Shown one piece after another: positions 913-30,015 of a stretch of 32,000 nucleotides of DNA (the first letter of the stretch is position 1; every line of letters starts with the position of its first letter). Origin of the DNA: Microcystis aeruginosa NIES-843 (lineage in GTDB: Bacteria; Cyanobacteriota; Cyanobacteriia; Cyanobacteriales; Microcystaceae). The stretch covers positions 2,940,001 to 2,972,000 of the forward strand of contig NC_010296.1 in assembly GCF_000010625.1 (NCBI RefSeq). Reading direction: 5' to 3'. Under the pieces are notes generated by a model, which saw nothing but the letters and a program-made list of their open reading frames with translations, was not told the origin of the DNA and did no database searches. Both the position numbers and the translations under genes were made by a program.

Positions 913-1100
913 GTTGACATCCTCACCGCCGTAAACGGACGGTGATTCCCAAACCTCACGATTTAGGTTTCTGCTTCTTTCCCTTGCGGGGTTCCGCACC
1001 TGCCTTAACAGATTTACTCTGTTCTGGTCTTATGGTCGCTCTACAGACTGACACCGCAAGCCCTGCGGCCAAAATATTTTTACTGGCGTTAATATCTCGG
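913..1100 (-). ncRNA. Candidate omegaRNA (reRNA) scaffold of copy A, overlapping the tnpB 3' end and RE
   Basis: In characterised TnpB systems the guide RNA scaffold is made from the tnpB 3' end plus the RE. This stretch is identical between copies A and B and ends in the RE hairpin. Extent is not determinable from sequence alone. Confidence 0.35.
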
Positions 1101-2144
1101 TCATGGTGCGTCCCACAGTCTGGACAATCCCATTCTCGAACATTTAACGGCATTTTCAAGGGCAATATACCCGCAATTACTACACCTTTTAGAGCTAGGA
1201 AACCATCTATCTATTTCGATGTAGTTTCTCCCATACCAACGGCATTTATAGGCTAATTGTCGGGTAATTTCTCCCCAGCTTACATCAGATATTGCCTGAG
1301 ATAATTTCGGGTTTTTGACCATATTCTTGACGGCTAAATTCTCAACCACAATCGTTTGGTTTTCCCGAACTAATTGAGTGGTTAGCTTGTGTAAATGGTC
1401 TTTCCTGCTATCGGTGATTTGAGCGTGAATTTTGGCTAATTTGATTCTTGCCTTTTCTCGATTCTTTGAGTCTTTCTGTTTTCTAGAAATATTTTTCGAT
1501 GCTCTTCGCAACCTCTGATAATGCTTTTTAAAATGCTTGGGATTAGACACTTTATCGCCATCGCTGGTAATCACGAGGCTACTAATTCCTAAGTCAATTC
1601 CGATGGCTTTATCTGTTACTGGTAATGGCTTAATCGTTGGGTCATCAAATCTTATTGAAATATGCCAACGTCCAGAAGGATGTAATCTGACTGTTACTGT
1701 GCTTGGTTCACAGCTTTCTGGTATTTGTCTTGACCATCGAATAGGTAAGGGTTCTGTGCATTTGGCTAAATAGATTTGTTTGTCTTTAAATTTAAAAGCA
1801 GACTTGGTAAATTCGGCACTTCCTCCTTGATGTTTTTTCTTAAAGTTAGGATACTTAGTACGACCAGCAAAGAAGTTAGTGAAAGCTGTTTGTAGGTGTC
1901 TTAACCCTTGTTGTAAAGGTACACAGCTTACTTCGTTTAAAAAGTTTAATTCTTCTTGTTTTTTCCACTCGGTTAGCATTGAAGAAGTTTGAGCGTAGCC
2001 TACTCTTTCTTGTCTTTCGTACCATGCTTGTGTTCTGACATGGAGAGCTTTGTTGTAAACTAATCTTACACAGCCCAATGTGCGCCGCAATAGCGACTCT
2101 TGTGTTGGTGTGGGGTAAAATCGGTAAGAATAGGCTTTTTCCAT
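956..2144 (-). CDS. tnpB: TnpB (IS605 OrfB) RNA-guided endonuclease, split by a +1 frame break near 1151-1170 (ORFs 1101..2144 and 956..1165)
   Basis: The N-terminus [12 protein letters not shown], RuvC-I IGIDLGI, RuvC-II VVENL and zinc-finger half CSNCG are in the long ORF. The second zinc-finger half and RuvC-III ([23 protein letters not shown]) are in the +1 frame ORF. Confidence 0.88.
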
Positions 2145-2234
2145 GTCTCACATTTTAGCATATATCGTGTAAATGCGCTAATATTTAACGGTAAAGCCGT
2201 CGTAGAACGACGGGGTTTCAGACCCAAATTTTCG

Positions 2235-4523: not shown

Positions 4524-4745
4524 CTAGGGTTTGCGGCAAAAAGTTTTTCGTGGGGACAGGGTGTGGGGTGTGGGGTGTGGGGTGTGGGGTTTTAGGGATT
4601 TTGAGGGGGTCAGTTACCTAATTTTCAGGGAAAAAGTCCCGGAATTTTACCCCCGATCACTCCAATGGTTGGCACTTTTTGAGGGAAAAAAAGTCTAAAA
4701 GTCTTACCCAACAAGGTTTTTAGATTTATTCAGCCAACCCTACCT
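4524..4745 (+). repeat. MITE-like repeat, copy 1 (contains a GTGTGGG heptamer run)
   Basis: Aligns by eye with 26461-26696 (same orientation) and 6001-6235 (inverted). Shared blocks: gcggcaaaaagtttttc..gggtgtggggtgtgggg.., acctaattttcagggaaaaagtcc.ggaatttt, and ggcactttttg...aaaagtc.aaaagtcttacccaacaagg. Confidence 0.85.
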
Positions 4746-4929
4746 AGTGGTCTGCGGCAAAAAGTTTTTCGTGGGGGTAGGGGTAGGGTTGATTCATGAA
4801 TCAACCCTACGACATCGGGGGGGTCGGGGGGGCGGGGGCAAGAGGCAAAAGGAGGAATAAATAATCAGTCTTTAATAACTGGATTTAGTATTAGAACAAT
4901 GGCGAGAAAATGAGCGTTTGGAACTGAAA

Positions 4930-5745
4930 TTACTGTCCAAATAAAACCGAACTATTGCCAGATCCTTGGAACAAGATCCAGGTCATCAGCAGATTAGATA
5001 CAAAAATCGCTAAGAGCATAGTGACTACGGCCGCGGTAGTAGCTTGGCCGACTCCTTTAGCACCGCCATCGGTCGTTAAACCCCAATTACAGCCGATAAT
5101 CGCGATTAAAGCCCCAAAAACCACCCCTTTAACCGGTCCACTCAGCACATCTCCCACACCCAGAAAACCGCGAACCGAGTCGAGAAAAACTGAATTGGCA
5201 ATCCCGTATAAACTTTGGCCGACCAGCAAACCGCTACCTAAACCGATCAGCAACGCCATAACACTCAAAGCGGGAACCATCAGACAACAGGCAATTAAAC
5301 GGGGCAGCACCAGATATTCCACGGGATCGGTTTTGAGCATATAGAGTGCGTCGATCTGCTCTGTCACCTTCATGGTACCGATTTCCGCCGCAAAAGCCGA
5401 TCCTACCCGACCGGCTACCACGATCGCCATCATAATCGGACAGAGTTCCCGACCGAGAGCAAGGGCCAAAATTCCCCCCACCATACTGCCAGCGCCCAAA
5501 GCTTGGAACTCCCGGGCCACTTGGATCGTAAAGATCATCCCGATCACCGCGGCCGTGATCATGGCGATAATCAGCGAGGCAGGCCCAGCTGCTACCATTT
5601 GTTCTTGGGTGACGCGCCAATCGGGTTGGCGCGTGAATAGGAAGTAAAAAACCCTGCCGGTCAATAGTACCGCTAACCAACAGCGCCGAAACCAAGAGCT
5701 TAATTCCTTGCTAAAAATCGCCAATAAATCCTTCATGGTCCCCAA
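4930..5745 (-). CDS. mlaE: MlaE/TGD1-family ABC transporter permease (lipid trafficking type)
   Basis: 271-aa polytopic ORF. QVAREFQALGAGSMVGGILALALGRELCPIMMAIVVAGRVGSAFAAEIGTMKVTEQIDAL is the MlaE signature region. Confidence 0.85.
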   Translation of the reverse strand: MGTMKDLLAIFSKELSSWFRRCWLAVLLTGRVFYFLFTRQPDWRVTQEQMVAAGPASLIIAMITAAVIGMIFTIQVAREFQALGAGSMVGGILALALGRELCPIMMAIVVAGRVGSAFAAEIGTMKVTEQIDALYMLKTDPVEYLVLPRLIACCLMVPALSVMALLIGLGSGLLVGQSLYGIANSVFLDSVRGFLGVGDVLSGPVKGVVFGALIAIIGCNWGLTTDGGAKGVGQATTAAVVTMLLAIFVSNLLMTWILFQGSGNSSVLFGQ

Positions 5746-5834
5746 AATCGATCGGACTAGAGAAAAGTCTATCCTGTTTTGTCTTCTAATACCAAATCCT
5801 GTTATAATAAAACGAGTAAAAACAAGGAGATAAA

Positions 5835-5909: not shown

Positions 5910-6000
5910 TTATTTATTCCCCCTTTTGCCTCTTGCCTGTTGCATGAGTGCCTCTCCTCTATAAGTAGCCTATACTCAACGGATTTAGTATAAGCGGTTT

Positions 6001-6235
6001 AAATAGGGTTGGCTGAATAAATCTAAAAACCTTGTTGGATAAGACTTTTGGACTTTTTTCCCCTCAAAAAGTGCCAGCCATTGCGGGGATAGGGGGGAAA
6101 ATTCCGGGACTTTTTCCCTGAAAATTAGGTAGTTGACCACCTGAAAATCGATCAAACCCCACACCCCACACCCCACACCCCACACCCTGCCCCCAGAAAA
6201 GCTTTTTCAGCAGCCCCTAAATAGGGTTGGCTGAA
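6001..6235 (-). repeat. MITE-like repeat, copy 2 (inverted relative to 4524-4745)
   Basis: The reverse complement aligns with copy 1, including the ccccaca x4 run (6160-6187). Both ends carry aaatagggttggctgaa. The tracked ORF 5985..6185 lies inside it. Confidence 0.85.
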
Positions 6236-14805: not shown

Positions 14806-14916
14806 CAGAAGACAAAACAGGATAGACTTTTCTCTAAGTCCGATTTAGTTTGGGGGCCATGAAGGATTTATTGGCGATTTTTAGCAAGGAATTAAGCTTT
14901 TGGTTAGCGGTACTAT
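14806..14916 (+). pseudogene. Duplicated fragment of the mlaE upstream region plus first codons
   Basis: Matches the reverse complement of about 5668-5789. Blocks agaagacaaaacaggatagacttttctcta and ccatgaaggatttattggcgatttttagcaaggaattaagct are identical. A 15-nt deletion lies between TTGGTT direct repeats. Leaves a 22-codon ORF MKDLLAIFSKELSFWLAVLSSHN*. Confidence 0.85.
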
Positions 14917-16289: not shown

Positions 16290-16898
16290 CTAGACTTTCC
16301 GAGAGTAGTATTCCACTACTAACAGTTCATTAATCGAGAGGGCAATCCATTCTCTTTCCACAACGCCATTCACTTTGCCCACAAGGGTGTTTTTGTCAAA
16401 TTCCAAATGACTCGGCAGGTTGGCTAAACCGGGGTATTCCATATTTCTTTTGACTAGATCCTGGGAACGCTCTTGATTTCTAACTCCAATCACATCACCC
16501 GGACGGCACTGATAACTGGCAATATCCACAACTCTACCGTTAACGGTGACGTGACCGTGATTGACTAATTGTCGCGCCCCCGGAATTGTCCCAGCCATAC
16601 CGAGACGGAAAACGGTATTATCCAGACGCATTTCTAAGAGTTGCAGCAGCACTTGACCAGTGGAACCGGTAGCCCGGCGAGCTTTGCGGACATAGCGAAT
16701 TAATTGTTTCTCGCTGACACCGTAGTTAAAACGCAGTTTTTGTTTTTCTTCTAGACGAATGGCATATTCTGAACGTTTTTTGCGGGCCTGGCCATGTTGC
16801 CCGGGTGCATAGGCACGACGGGCATTTTTACGGGTTAAGCCTGGTAATTCCCCTAAACGACGCACAACGCGCAAGCGCGGTCCTCTATAACGAGACAT
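16290..16898 (-). CDS. rpsD: 30S ribosomal protein S4
   Basis: [24 protein letters not shown]... and the S4 domain [39 protein letters not shown]. Confidence 0.96.
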
Positions 16899-16974
16899 AC
16901 AGACAGTCTGCTCCTATTTAAATTTATCCCAAAACTATTATCGTAGCACAAATTAAGTGATTTAGTTGGCGTGT

Positions 16975-17143
16975 GGGGAGATGGGGAGAGGGGAGAACGG
17001 AGTGGGATGATGGGGTGTGGGGTGTGGGGTGTGGGGTGTGGGGAGAATAAATAAAAGCAATCTCCTGAATACTGACTCCCGACTCGGAGAATACTGATCA
17101 CTGATTACTGATTACTGATTACTGATCACTGATTCAAGCCTGA
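16975..17143. repeat. Composite tandem repeats upstream of rpsD: G-rich (GTGTGGG)n then (ACTGATT/ACTGATC)n
   Basis: ggggagatggggagaggggag..., then ggggtgtggggtgtggggtgtggggtgtgggg (about 17012-17043). A second array atactga tcactga ttactga ttactga ttactga tcactga sits at 17091-17143. Confidence 0.9.
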
Positions 17144-17167
17144 CGGCAGCTGATGTATTTTTTTCAT

Positions 17168-17521
17168 CGGAAATTTTGGGTCTGAAACCCCGCCGTTCTA
17201 GGTTGGCTTTACGTTAGAATTAAAAAGCCAGTCTCGAAAACCAAGTGGACGGCGCAGCACCTTGAAAACTCGGCTTAGGGGGTTCCGACCAGAAAAGCTT
17301 GGCCGGGTAAAAAGTCGCGCGCAACAAGTACAAGAAGCTATAGGCGGTCAACGTACCGTGGGACACACGGAATCGGGCTTCTGAAATGGGGCGAAAGTCT
17401 GTGGACTCTGTGTAAGACAGTACATGGTTTTTTAACTGTGGTATGCGACGGTGGTGGAAGCAGAAACTTAAATCGTGAGGTTTAGGAATCGCCGCACTTT
17501 TAGGGCGGCGAGGATGTCAAT
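17168..17521 (+). mobile_element. tnpB-less miniature derivative of an IS200/IS605-family element (LE-like and RE/omegaRNA-like ends, no ORF)
   Basis: The 5' end cggaaattttgggtctgaaaccccgccgttcta matches the IS left end cgaaaatttgggtctgaaaccccgtcgttcta. The 3' end gaagcagaaacttaaatcgtgaggtttaggaatcgccgcacttttagggcggcgaggatgtcaat matches the IS right end, with the hairpin retained. The same TCAT flanks the 5' side. Confidence 0.6.
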
Positions 17522-17642
17522 AAAGATGAGGCTAATCTCTGCCATCTTAGGGCATACTGTGAGTGTAACGAAGCACTATATTACTCAGTTTGCTTTCCCA
17601 CTCCTTCCCTAGCTGAATCTCTATCTTGGAGAAGCCATAGTC

Positions 17643-18143
17643 ATGATCGAAATGAAAGTCGCTGGAATTGCCCTAGACGCTATCACTCGCAGTCCCATTG
17701 TACTACTCAAGGATGGTTCCGAGCGTCGCGCCCTACCTATCTACATCGGACAAGATCAGGCTAAGGCCATTATCACCGTCCTCGAACAACAAAAACCCCC
17801 TCGTCCCCTCACCCACGATTTGATCGCTAATATTTTTAAAGTTTGGGACATGGATTTAGAAAAGATTATCATCCATTCTCTCCAAGATAATACCTTTTAT
17901 GCTGTTCTCTGTCTCCAGCGCGGCGAAGTCAAAAAAGAAATCGATTGTCGTCCCAGTGATGCGATCGCTATTGCCCTGCGTACCAACAGTCCCGTCTGGG
18001 TAATGGAAGAAGTGATCGCTTCCGCTTCTATTCCCGTCGATCGTGACGCGGATGAAGAGGAACGTCAAGCTTTTCGCAATTTCGTCTCCAATCTTAGCCC
18101 CTCAGACCTGATCCAACGTCGCGGTGATTTTAGTGAGCAGTGA
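17643..18143 (+). CDS. Bifunctional nuclease (BFN/DUF151) family protein
   Basis: MKVAGIALDAITRSPIVLLKD...LPIYIG..QA.AI......KPPRPLTHDL...CRPSDAIAIALRTNSPVWV is the DUF151 pattern. Confidence 0.8.
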   Translation: MIEMKVAGIALDAITRSPIVLLKDGSERRALPIYIGQDQAKAIITVLEQQKPPRPLTHDLIANIFKVWDMDLEKIIIHSLQDNTFYAVLCLQRGEVKKEIDCRPSDAIAIALRTNSPVWVMEEVIASASIPVDRDADEEERQAFRNFVSNLSPSDLIQRRGDFSEQ

Positions 18144-18147
18144 AAAT

Positions 18148-18401
18148 TCAGGAGATAGGAGATAGGGGTTTAGGGGTTTAGGGGTTTAGGGAAATTTCAG
18201 CCAAATGCTCCACTGCCCCACTTCCCCACTTCCCCACTTCCCCATCACCCCACTTCCCCACTGCCCCACTTCCCCACTGCCCCACTTCCCCACTTCCCCA
18301 CTTCCCCACTCCCCCATCACCCCACACCCCACACCCCACACCCAATACCTTCTAACTGGTAACTGATAACTGGTAACTGATAACTGATAACTGGTAACTG
18401 A
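18148..18401. repeat. Composite tandem-repeat spacer (G-rich units, conserved core, CCCCACTT octamers, CCCCACA heptamers, TAACTGR heptamers)
   Basis: In order: caggagataggagatagg; ggtttagg x3; core gggaaatttcagccaaatgctccact; about 13 ccccact[tg]/ccccatca units; ccccaca x3; taactgg/taactga x7. The array ends 4 nt before the ATG at 18406. Confidence 0.95.
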
Positions 18402-24060: not shown

Positions 24061-24155
24061 TTCATCGAAAATTTGGGTCTGAAACCCCGTCGTTCTACGA
24101 CGGCTTTACCGTTAAATATTAGCGCATTTACACGATATATGCTAGAATGCGAGAT

Positions 24156-25344
24156 ATGGAAAAAGCCTATTCTTACCGATTTTACCCCACACCAAAACAA
24201 GAGTCGCTATTGCGGCGCACTTTGGGCTGTGTAAGATTAGTTTACAATAAAGCTCTCCATGTCAGAACACAAGCATGGTACGAAAAGCAAGAAAGAGTAG
24301 GCTACGCTCAAACTTCTTCAATGCTAACCCATTGGAAAAAACAAGAAGAATTAAACTTTTTAAACGAGGTAAGCTGTGTACCTTTACAACAAGGGTTAAG
24401 ACACCTACAAACAGCTTTTACTAATTTCTTTGCTGGTCGTACTAAGTATCCTAACTTTAAGAAAAAACATCAAGGAGGAAGTGCTGAATTTACCAAATCT
24501 GCTTTTAAGTTCAAAGACAAACAAATCTATTTAGCCAAATGCACAGAACCTTTACCTATTCGATGGTCAAGACAAATACCAGAAAGCTGTGACCCAAGTA
24601 CAGTAACAGTCAGATTACATCCTTCTGGACGTTGGCATATTTCAATAAGATTTGATGACCCAACAATCCAGCCATTACCCCCAACCGATAAAGCCATCGG
24701 AATTGACTTAGGAATTAGTAGCCTAGTAATTACCAGCGATGGAGACAAGGTATCTAATCTCAAGCATTTTAAAAGGCATTATCGGAGACTGCGAAAGGCA
24801 CAAAAAAGTCTTTCTCGAAAACAGAAAGGCTCAAAAAATCGGGAAAAAGCGAGAATCAAAGTAGCCAAGATTCACGCTCAAATCACCGATAGCAGAAAAG
24901 ACCATTTACACAAGCTAACCACTCAATTAGTTCGTGAAAACCAAACGATTGTGGTTGAGAATTTAGCCGTCAAGAATATGGTCAAAAACCCCAAGTTATC
25001 TCAGGCAATATCTGATGTAAGCTGGGGAGAAATCACTCGACAATTAGCCTATAAATGCCGTTGGTATGGGAGAAATTACATCGAAATAGATAGATGGTTT
25101 CCTAGCTCTAAAAGGTGTAGTAATTGCGGGTATATTGCCCTTGAAAATGCCGTTAAATGTTCGAGAGTGGGACTGTCCAGACTGTGGGACTCACCACGAC
25201 CGAGATATTAACGCTAGTAAAAATATTTTGGCCGCAGGGCTTGCGGTGTCAGTCTGTAGAGCGACCATAAGACCAGAACAGAGTAAATCTGTTAAGGCAG
25301 GTGCGGAACCCCGCAAGGGAAAGAAGCAGAAACCTAAATCGTGA
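24156..25344 (+). CDS. tnpB: TnpB (IS605 OrfB) RNA-guided endonuclease, split by the same +1 frame break (ORFs 24147..25211 and 25135..25344)
   Basis: Start at MEKAYSY (24156). About 15 aa differ from copy A upstream of the break. The 69-aa downstream frame is identical in protein sequence to copy A. Confidence 0.88.
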
Positions 25345-25387
25345 GGTTTGGGAATCACCGTCCGTTTACGGCGGTGAGGATGTCAAC
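25200..25387 (+). ncRNA. Candidate omegaRNA (reRNA) scaffold of copy B
   Basis: The tnpB 3' end plus the RE hairpin (caccgtccg-ttta-cggcggtg). It is nucleotide-identical to copy A over the last ~170 nt. The guide would be the flank starting near 25388 (attcatactttgtgc...). Extent is inferred from characterised TnpB systems. Confidence 0.35.
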
Positions 25388-26440: not shown

Positions 26441-26696
26441 AAGGCTTCCAGTAATATTCAGCAAACCCTAATTAGGGTTTGCGGCAAAAAGTTTTTCCTG
26501 GGGGCAGGGTGTGGGGTGTAGGGTGTAGGGTGTAGGGTTTTAGCGATTTTGAGGGGGTCAATTACCTAATTTTCAGGGAAAAAGTCCAGGAATTTTCCAC
26601 CCGATCACTCCGGGATCTGGCACTTTTTGGTTTCCAAAAAGTCTAAAAGTCTTACCCAACAAGGCTTCCAGTAATATTCAGCAAACCCTAATTAGG
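26441..26696 (+). repeat. MITE-like repeat, copy 3, bounded by 36-nt direct repeats
   Basis: aaggcttccagtaatattcagcaaaccctaattagg occurs at 26441-26476 and again at 26661-26696. The interior aligns with 4524-4745. It contains the perfect 22-nt palindrome gcaaaccctaattagggtttgc. Confidence 0.85.
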
Positions 26697-26788
26697 AGTC
26701 GGTTTACCTCACCGGTAGCATAGCGCAAGTTTGCATAATAACGGAGAGATTTAATAATAATTTGTCTCATTTTTTCTAAACTATCCAT
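26697..26788 (-). pseudogene. xisI: XisI-family N-terminal remnant, truncated by the MITE
   Basis: The minus strand reads MDSLEKMRQIIIKSLRYYANLRYATGEVNR, which resembles XisI N-termini (MDKL..YR..I..LL..YA). The reading frame then runs into MITE sequence and stops. Confidence 0.5.
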
Positions 26789-28404: not shown

Positions 28405-28637
28405 GATTCTAGCTCTCGCTTGGGTAGCCCGTGAATGTAATGATCGTGCTGATAGGACAAATCGGAAGTTCCTGTATTCATCTGGCACTCTTCTAAGATT
28501 TGGTCAAACTCGTCCCAAAAATCATACTCTGGGGATCTGGATTCAAGCTGCTTTATGAGCATTGCGGCAATCTTATTTTGCTCTGATTCGGGGAGTTGTT
28601 TGACTTGAGCGATCGCCTCTTCTAATAGCTTTGTCAT
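28401..28637 (-). CDS. Putative antitoxin of the VapC-like toxin (unclassified family)
   Basis: 78 aa. MTKLLEEAIAQVKQLPESEQNKIAAMLIKQLE and a C-terminal ..HDHYIHGLPKR motif, translationally coupled to the PIN gene. A second copy is at 29603-29863. Confidence 0.65.
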   Translation of the reverse strand: MTKLLEEAIAQVKQLPESEQNKIAAMLIKQLESRSPEYDFWDEFDQILEECQMNTGTSDLSYQHDHYIHGLPKRELES

Positions 28638-28684
28638 ATCTTTGGAATTGTATAAAACCCTAATAACGATTATCTCATCATCTC

Positions 28685-28730
28685 GTTACCAGGTTCTACC
28701 TGGTAACGCTCTTTTCAGGTTCTACCTGAA
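28685..28730 (-). promoter_or_regulatory. Two inverted repeats sharing the core CAGGTAGAACCTG (candidate operators) upstream of the antitoxin gene
   Basis: Plus strand: gttaccagg-ttcta-cctggtaac (28685-28707) and ttcagg-ttcta-cctgaa (28714-28730). They lie 50-90 nt upstream of the ATG at 28637. The duplicate locus at about 29915-29935 has only one hybrid copy. Confidence 0.4.
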
Positions 28731-29602: not shown

Positions 29603-29863
29603 TCAGTTTTTTCTACTGTTCACTGTTAACTGTTCACTGTATCGCTTGGGTAGCCCGTGAATGTAATGATCGTGCTGATAGGACAGATCGGAAATTCCTG
29701 TATTCATCTGGCACTCTTCTAAGATTTGGTCAAACTCGTCCCAAAAATCATACTCTGGGGATCTGGATTCAAGCTGCTTTATGAGCATTGCGGCAATCTT
29801 ATTTTGCTCTGATTCGGGGAGTTGTTTGACTTGAGCGATCGCCTCTTCTAATAGCTTTGTCAT
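29603..29863 (-). CDS. Second copy of the antitoxin, orphan (toxin gene deleted), C-terminus fused to the last vapC codons and heptamer-repeat sequence
   Basis: The first 73 aa match 28401..28637 except T56I. It then reads YSEQLTVNSRKN* in place of ELES*. Confidence 0.6.
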   Translation of the reverse strand: MTKLLEEAIAQVKQLPESEQNKIAAMLIKQLESRSPEYDFWDEFDQILEECQMNTGISDLSYQHDHYIHGLPKRYSEQLTVNSRKN

Positions 29864-30015
29864 ATCCTTGGAATTGTATAAAACCCTAATAACGATTATC
29901 TCATCATCTCGTTCCCAGGTTCTACCTGAAGAATAGTTTAAGGCAGCTCCTTAAATATTGTCTGTCAAGGCAGAGCCTTGGCACAAGCGAAAGGCATACA
30001 AGCAAGCATTTTCGG

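Follow-up and report, generated by a model that had tools for sequence, protein, structure and literature searches.

Background

IS200/IS605 elements transpose as top-strand single-stranded DNA, and in TnpB systems the 3' region of the tnpB elements acts as an omegaRNA. We take the omegaRNA (reRNA) of TnpB from IS605/IS1341-type elements such as ISDra2 (Karvelis 2021, Altae-Tran 2021) to be the closest system for the 3' module described below. PATEs (Dyall-Smith et al. 2011) are cited here as presented in Meers et al. 2023 (10.1101/2023.03.14.532601), where they "often encode omegaRNAs" and need TnpB in trans. An ORF-less PATE derived from IStrons, which combines a group I intron with an omegaRNA, is the subject of another report, in which TnpB was functional with an omegaRNA provided in trans (10.1101/2023.11.20.567912). 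Microcystis has 14–16 active IS200-type tnpA genes (PMC11448079), and M. aeruginosa NIES-843 carries 49 copies of ISMae10, a 1330-bp member of the IS605 family (PMC2779907). Classical bacterial MITEs such as MaeMITEa-h and Nezha have terminal inverted repeats and duplications (PMC2779907, PMC3184786).

The window analysed here is a 32,000-nt stretch of the M. aeruginosa NIES-843 genome. The 745-nt spacer between rpsD and a BFN-domain gene harbours a short non-autonomous element (17168-17520), which we call the mini-element, and the window also contains two tnpB-only insertion sequences (IS). The features used in the following sections are:

16290-16898, minus strand: rpsD
17643-18143, plus strand: BFN-domain gene
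17164-17167, plus strand: TCAT, the target (transposon-adjacent) motif directly before the left end; part of the flank, not of the element
17168-17520, plus strand: whole non-autonomous element, 353 nt, delimited by its exact absence in two genomes and by near-identical copies elsewhere
17168-17212, plus strand: left end, 88% identical to its counterparts in the IS, containing subterminal hairpins at 17178-17190 and at 17191-17205
17215-17220, plus strand: TAGAAT, a -10-like hexamer and possible promoter, judged by its position
17234-17349, plus strand: 5' RNA domain with a long bent hairpin (17261-17328) and invariant internal loops (covariance model R2, helices 5-6)
17356-17520, plus strand: omegaRNA-like 3' module with an extra hairpin (17377-17392), homologous to the IS region that comprises the 3' end of tnpB and the right end
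17489-17511, plus strand: right-end hairpin with an A-U to G-C paired substitution (helix 14)
17521-17537, plus strand: right flank TAAAGATGAGGCTAATC, predicted guide by position and by analogy with TnpB omegaRNAs
914-2234, minus strand: tnpB-only IS copy A, ISMae10-like, tnpB frameshifted as in copy B
24066-25386, plus strand: tnpB-only IS copy B, ISMae10-like, tnpB frameshifted

Comparison with described systems

Like a PATE, the mini-element has IS200/IS605 ends with subterminal hairpins, has no ORF, is present in multiple copies and inserts after a fixed tetranucleotide without duplicating it; its guide-RNA region suggests that both TnpA and TnpB would be used in trans. The first-pass annotation had proposed a tnpB-less, PATE-like IS200/IS605 element, and the ends, the lack of an ORF, the insertion at TCAT without duplication and the copies at several loci all agree with that proposal. 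The mini-element departs from PATEs in adding a conserved, covarying RNA domain of ~116 nt that is missing in its tnpB-bearing relatives, in belonging to an old family that spans cyanobacterial genera and has several types of ends, and in possessing a -10-like box of its own. The IStron-derived PATE is also a protein-less IS605-type element with a structured 5' RNA and a 3' omegaRNA scaffold, but the 5' domain of the mini-element has no match to group I introns or other Rfam families and, at ~116 nt, is too small for a group I intron.

As in ISDra2-type omegaRNAs, the last ~165 nt of the mini-element form a multi-hairpin scaffold, related by homology to the 3' end of copies with tnpB, that continues through the right-end hairpin to ...TCAA, and by analogy the flank would occupy the position of the guide. 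In contrast to these omegaRNAs, the module does not overlap a tnpB gene, contains the extra hairpin at 17377-17392 and has a structured 5' domain, not coding sequence, ahead of it; any activity of the module is putative. With ISMae10, as represented by the copies in the window, the mini-element shares the TCAT target, the left end (88% identity) and the last 64 nt (88% identity), but it lacks tnpB, and its interior 5' domain is unrelated to the ISMae10 sequence of these copies.

The mini-element resembles MaeMITEa-h and Nezha in its short length and lack of coding sequence, in its multiple copies and in being common in Microcystis. Nevertheless, we rejected a classification as classical MITE, because there are neither terminal inverted repeats nor a target-site duplication and the two ends form different hairpins. 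Its length of 353 nt equals none of the eight listed MaeMITE lengths, and it would be expected to move by single-strand 'peel and paste' rather than by a DDE transposase. The kind of element is known from publications; this variant, a family with a wide cyanobacterial distribution and an additional conserved RNA domain, is new among the sources that we searched.

Boundaries, ends and insertion site

The insertion site is occupied in six other loci and empty in two complete genomes, L230 (CP142375) and L228 (CP046973). In both of the latter, exactly positions 17168-17520 are absent and no target duplication is seen. The empty site of L230 reads ...TTTTTTTCAT/TAAAGATGAGG... (in a longer form ...GATGTATTTTTTTCAT/TAAAGATGAGGCTAATC...), with the joint TCAT/TAAAG, where the slash marks the insertion point. 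These empty sites define an element of 353 nt and an insertion signature of the IS200/IS605 type, and they place T17521 in the flank. The mini-element ends with ...GATGTCAA at 17520, and the base following TCAA is variable in other copies, so that the length of 354 bp and the end at 17521 given in the first-pass annotation have to be corrected by one nucleotide. TCAT is the 5' neighbour of both IS copies in the window, which terminate with ...GAGGATGTCAA, and of nearly all mini-elements of the same subfamily (i) elsewhere. The empty site of L228 has TCGT in place of TCAT at the insertion point, a variant that may resist insertion or cutting by TnpB.

An insertion with 100% identity is found at the same locus in several strains and metagenomes; carriers of the element include GCA_003389435.1 and the complete genomes CP191409 and CP086723. 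Several M. aeruginosa assemblies encode BFN-domain and S4 proteins identical to those of the window. Assemblies break or show N-gaps within the mini-element, which is typical of repeats. For Microcystis genomics, the element explains contig breaks and presence/absence differences beside core genes.

The left end (17170-17212, 43 nt) is 88% identical to 24067-24109 and 2191-2233 of the IS copies, and the same identity is reached by the right end (17457-17520, 64 nt) with 25323-25386 and 914-977. The earlier assignment of the first ~35 nt to the IS left end and of the last ~65 nt to the 3' end of tnpB together with the right end therefore holds. The left-end hairpin had been called degraded, a description that does not fit: its first hairpin has stayed intact, two mismatches occur in the second, the same left end occurs at no fewer than six loci, and the pairs of both hairpins (helices 1-2) are kept to 92–96% among 26 family members. 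As had been noted, the interior is richer in GC (0.51, with 0.50 for the whole mini-element) than the IS (0.41), the window as a whole being at 0.44, and there is no ORF of 60 aa or more; the longest has 48 aa.

The right-end hairpin (helix 14) shows changes on both sides in six of its eight pairs, while 94.7% of the cells in the alignment remain paired. For one pair (alignment columns 468/489), the 26 members have AU 13 times, CG nine times, and GC and UA twice each. The paired substitution pointed out before (tcACCG...CGGTga in the IS, tcGCCGC...GCGGCga in the mini-element) is real. It is not specific to the mini-element, however: the G-C stem and G.U intermediates are also present in full-length, tnpB-bearing copies, and the substitution is therefore a polymorphism of the family.

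The resident tnpB insertion sequences

The two IS copies in the window are inverted relative to each other, measure 1321 nt each and are 95% identical. Both encode OrfB_IS605, HTH and Cas12f1-like TNB domains. Their designation as ISMae10-like is based on the published size and family. The tnpB genes at 24147-25211 (plus strand) and 1101-2144 (minus strand) have a +1 frameshift patch in common, GGGTATATTGCCCTTGAAAATGCC instead of the GGGCATATTG-CTGAAAAAATGCC of an intact copy, and the 170 nt 3' of this patch, which comprise the omegaRNA region, are 100% conserved. Hence, either a frameshifted tnpB lineage has spread or the copies have been homogenised. The frameshift deprives TnpB of the second half of the zinc finger (the second CxxC) and of the last RuvC Asp. 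Both window copies are thereby excluded as TnpB partner of the mini-element, and such a partner would have to be encoded elsewhere in the genome. An intact TnpB of 395 aa with RuvC motifs is present at the site of copy B, 6.7 kb from the same mini-element, in another assembly (GCA_003389435.1, L001:16546-17733). A match of 15 out of 16 positions between TATTGCACCTTGAAAA in the mini-element and the frameshift patch of the window IS was dismissed as coincidental, as 7 of 200 shuffled sequences scored as high.

The 3' module is homologous to tnpB-linked guide RNA regions

We built a covariance model (R1) exclusively from 13 tnpB-linked 3' ends. R1 aligns with positions 17371-17520 of the mini-element over model positions 1-165 (70.6 bits, E about 1e-19), and a separate local match at 17356-17370 corresponds to hairpin H1 of the IS. 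It also matches every family member tested, with 28–72 bits. Conversely, a profile HMM of the family finds the IS of the window at 25250-25386 over ~125 model positions (59 bits). The resemblance of the interior to the IS, which had been described as only faint, is thus considerably larger in the 3' part, where the model built from IS ends fits from end to end. At the level of sequence and predicted structure, these matches show homology between the last ~165 nt of the mini-element and the guide-RNA (omegaRNA) region linked to tnpB. That such a module had been retained was recognized before, but it extends beyond the limits reported then.

If the module functions like other TnpB omegaRNAs, its guide would be its own right flank, TAAAGATGAGGCTAATC. 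This sequence occurs once in the window, and TCAT followed by TAAAGATGAGGCTAATC is what the empty site of L230 contains. By this analogy, the guide would direct TnpB to the element's own empty site and not, as had been envisaged with a 'different guide', to another target.

Distribution of the family and evidence for mobility

Genomes were scanned with the left-end core and metagenomes with an interior pattern, followed by a profile search. Together, the two collection scans and the profile search yielded 40 full-length copies, which include 34 unique ones and originate from Microcystis, Roseofilum, Lyngbya, Oscillatoria, metagenome-assembled genomes of Microcystaceae and many metagenomes. Subfamily i (352–385 nt) is inserted after TCAT and subfamily ii (~397 nt) after TTAC; the right terminus of the family is ...GTCAA. 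Additional groups have other end hairpins with the same interior. Across genera, family members are 60–80% identical and differ by compensatory changes. The family is old, widespread and distinct from the resident IS.

The mini-element has moved recently to several loci. Copies with 98–100% identity lie in different flanks (L039, L066, L138, L028, L036), deletion forms with different flanks also exist (L013, L027), and Microcystis copies with more than 95% identity are found in at least eight distinct flanks. We also observed shorter gene-less derivatives (L107:6383-6532, L013:3283-3455, L072:5202-5410). One of them, of ~150 nt, consists only of the left end and the terminal ~64 nt of the right end, and the others are internally deleted mini-elements. 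As these derivatives have spread without the interior, the interior is dispensable for mobility.

None of 117 interior matches has a tnpB within the element, and none of the 117 copies adjoins an alternative partner protein. The 221 sampled loci yielded no tnpA with these ends, and none follows the common left end. The plasmid search returned only left-end or right-end matches in cyanobacterial IS copies and chance matches in Enterobacter, and the viral contigs searched contained no match to the mini-element. A supposed tnpB-bearing parent, suggested by matches to model positions 2-248, proved to be mini-elements with another MITE nested inside. Nested MITEs are seen in some family copies: in L028 (2920-3029) and L036 (2026-2076), a GC-rich insert, probably another small MITE, follows mini-element position 94 within the 5' hairpin of the RNA domain.

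Covariation and the folded strand

An alignment of 26 diverse members was made with MAFFT without structural input (mean column identity 60%). On this alignment, RNAalifold predicted 63 pairs, 30 of which show compensatory changes. In a recount with one hairpin added, 93.4% of the cells were paired over 69 pairs, and 32 of these had changes on both sides. The covariation score was 0.377 compared with 0.178 for shuffled alignments, none of 500 reaching the observed value, and it fell to 0.083 or less when the partners were slid. Helices 7-14 of the 3' module combine conserved pairing with covariation. That the structure is under selection, as had been argued from a single hairpin, is thus borne out by strong covariation throughout a large family. 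By itself, the mini-element folds with unremarkable stability (z = -1.1).

G.U pairs (213 cells) by far outnumber A.C combinations (26 cells), which identifies the plus strand as the folded strand, read as RNA. This is also the direction of tnpB in the IS. Some G.U pairs are invariant, being present in 26 of 26 and 25 of 26 sequences.

As to expression, nearly all of the 34 unique members have a TAnnnT hexamer ~15–35 nt 5' of the conserved GAAAACCAAG block, in several cases with a TGn extension. This -10-like box is a possible promoter, and transcription of the mini-element is putative. A consensus scan revealed no two-hexamer (canonical) promoter and no terminator, and the Microcystis transcriptome literature offered nothing usable on transcription start sites.

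A family-specific 5' RNA domain

Helices 5 and 6 of the 5' domain are paired in 95–97% of the cells, with three and six pairs, respectively, changed on both sides. The unpaired blocks GAAAACCAAG, GCACCUUGAAAACU, GGGGUUC, GGUAAAA and CAAGUAC are invariant. A covariance model of this domain (R2) scores 105.7 bits on the mini-element. Elsewhere in the window and in eight tnpB-bearing loci, searched with filters off, its score did not exceed 10.6 bits (E>3). These 116 nt have no counterpart in the tnpB-bearing copies. Simple deletion within the IS, one of two possibilities raised in the first-pass annotation, therefore does not account for the mini-element, which represents an old family of its own.

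Rfam gave nothing relevant for the window at the gathering threshold, for 16900-17700 at E<=10, or for six other members at E<=1. One match to MOSES4 with 35 bits, on the opposite strand of L175, was judged to be noise. We also rejected an origin of the domain from a decayed tnpB or IS 5' region, since collinear comparison against shuffled sequences gave z<1.5, local matches were inconsistent and likewise not significant and R2 was silent on the IS loci. Extensions of HMM alignments past the left end had low posterior probability.

Two segments of the domain, UGC (17256-17258) and CUUG (17261-17264), have two mutually exclusive, covarying partners each. For the first, a triple covariation links 17256-17258, 17243-17245 and 17445-17447; the three columns concerned (195, 179 and 421 of alignment A4) occur as A-U-A, G-C-G and G-U-G. 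This means that one segment has a choice between a local partner and one in the omegaRNA core; the triple covariation may reflect a switch or a phylogenetic correlation. In the window copy, A17256 disrupts both alternative pairings.

Proposed mechanism and alternative explanations

Taken on the sequence comparisons above, the best reading, and in our opinion a probable one, is that of a PATE-type element that is moved by TnpA in trans and that, through its RNA, uses a borrowed TnpB to cut the site it has vacated, in line with the homing model of Meers et al. (10.1101/2023.03.14.532601). A Y1 TnpA encoded elsewhere would excise and insert the mini-element as single-stranded DNA via the end hairpins. 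Starting at a promoter immediately internal to the left end, with TAGAAT as its -10 box, a ~300-nt RNA would extend through the right end into the flank, and the 5' domain (17234-17349) would be part of the same transcript. An intact TnpB of the ISMae10 type, supplied from elsewhere in the genome, would bind the 3' module and use the flank TAAAGATGAGGCTAATC... as guide. After excision, TnpB would cut the joint left behind at the donor site, TCAT/TAAAGATG..., and the element would be restored by recombination with a sister chromosome. The mini-element would then be a parasite of both TnpA and TnpB. Its module differs from that of the IS by the extra hairpin and by sequence divergence upstream of the last 64 nt, and compatibility of its RNA with ISMae10 TnpB is putative.

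A homing guide needs only a scaffold of ~130–165 nt, and the homing model therefore leaves the conserved 5' domain unexplained. RNA stability, folding, competition for TnpB and a conformational switch are candidate roles. We tentatively propose, as an idea that is possible but doubtful, that a guide-RNA-only transposon has acquired a new functional RNA module, namely the 116-nt 5' domain with its invariant internal loops and its possible alternative pairings to the omegaRNA core. A related, rather unlikely explanation is that the element is mobile but that its conserved RNA does not mainly serve as homing guide for TnpB, being instead a TnpB decoy or regulator, the guide of another TnpB-like protein, or a regulatory RNA or ribozyme with the 5' domain as its core. 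The 5' domain equals the omegaRNA core in conservation and covariation (helices 5-6), is missing from all tnpB-bearing relatives tested and is retained across subfamilies that differ in end hairpins and target motifs, and the exclusive partners of UGC and CUUG hint at a switch. On the other hand, the homology of the 3' module to tnpB-linked omegaRNA is clear and continues to the ...GAGGATGTCAA junction, and this is the portion on which use of a guide depends; Rfam offers no ribozyme, riboswitch or intron match, and the alternative partner protein looked for next to the 117 copies was found at none.

It is quite improbable that the conserved pairing serves the single-stranded DNA intermediate of transposition (recognition by TnpA, compaction of the circle or protection) instead of an RNA. 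The pairing does lie on the top strand, in which IS200/IS605 elements move, and the hairpins at both ends are known DNA-level signals, but TnpA requires only these subterminal hairpins, the short derivatives without interior (L107, L013, L072) spread as well, RNA is where invariant G.U pairs and invariant internal loops are typically seen, and the region of TnpB systems with which the 3' module shares homology acts as RNA. Co-option by the host, with the mini-element as promoter or 5' leader of the BFN-domain gene (17643-18143), has still less probability. The element lies 122 nt upstream of this gene in the same orientation, may read outward, and is 100% conserved in several strains; yet insertion-free strains retain the same BFN gene and upstream region, other copies are in unrelated contexts, and the carrier strains are near-identical throughout, which makes the conservation uninformative. 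An inert, randomly decayed ISMae10 remnant, a case that the first-pass annotation had tied to the lack of covariation, is already refuted and has next to no probability. The missing tnpB, the repeat-rich intergenic setting and the two frameshifted IS copies nearby would suit a remnant, but the precise empty site, the near-identical copies at other loci, the 60–80% identity across genera with compensatory changes and an interior that is not derived from the IS do not; among the 26 aligned members, covariation is strong.

Gene-less IS200/IS605 elements with a guide RNA have received mention in publications but little study, and the present family is a well-defined natural case. It offers exact boundaries, a natural empty site, dozens of diverged copies and a structure supported by covariation, and its guide scaffold of the TnpB type is cleanly separated from the additional conserved domain. 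This makes it possible to test whether guide RNAs spread as parasites of TnpB, and which RNA features are selected once the guide has left the overlap with a gene. The mini-element also provides a compact, natural omegaRNA design with a putative promoter. If the 5' domain is indeed a new module, it could work as a switch, serve as a platform that binds proteins or be a ribozyme. It might outcompete tnpB-encoded guides for TnpB, making the element a hyperparasite of TnpB transposons, or it might instead couple guide production to a cellular signal.

Other repeats in the window

The window contains several further repeats. A MITE family of ~205–228 nt with a tract of CCCCACA heptamers is present at 4525-4752 and 26473-26700 and, inverted, at 6000-6207 (81–89% identity). 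It is also found nested in mini-elements of subfamily ii (L218:3705-3925), and this composite occurs at many loci. A direct repeat of 287 nt (28416-28702 and 29642-29928, 99% identical) adjoins small DUF433/DUF5615/PIN-type genes, which resemble toxin-antitoxin genes. The ~100-nt arms of an inverted repeat (5690-5787 and 14807-14905, 93–100% complementary) are 9 kb apart and probably belong to another small mobile element. Finally, arrays of heptamers (GGGGTGT, ACTGATT) and an array with a period of 8 nt, located at 17000-17046, 17085-17131 and 18167-18400, flank the rpsD, BFN and aldo-keto reductase genes and vary in repeat number between strains.
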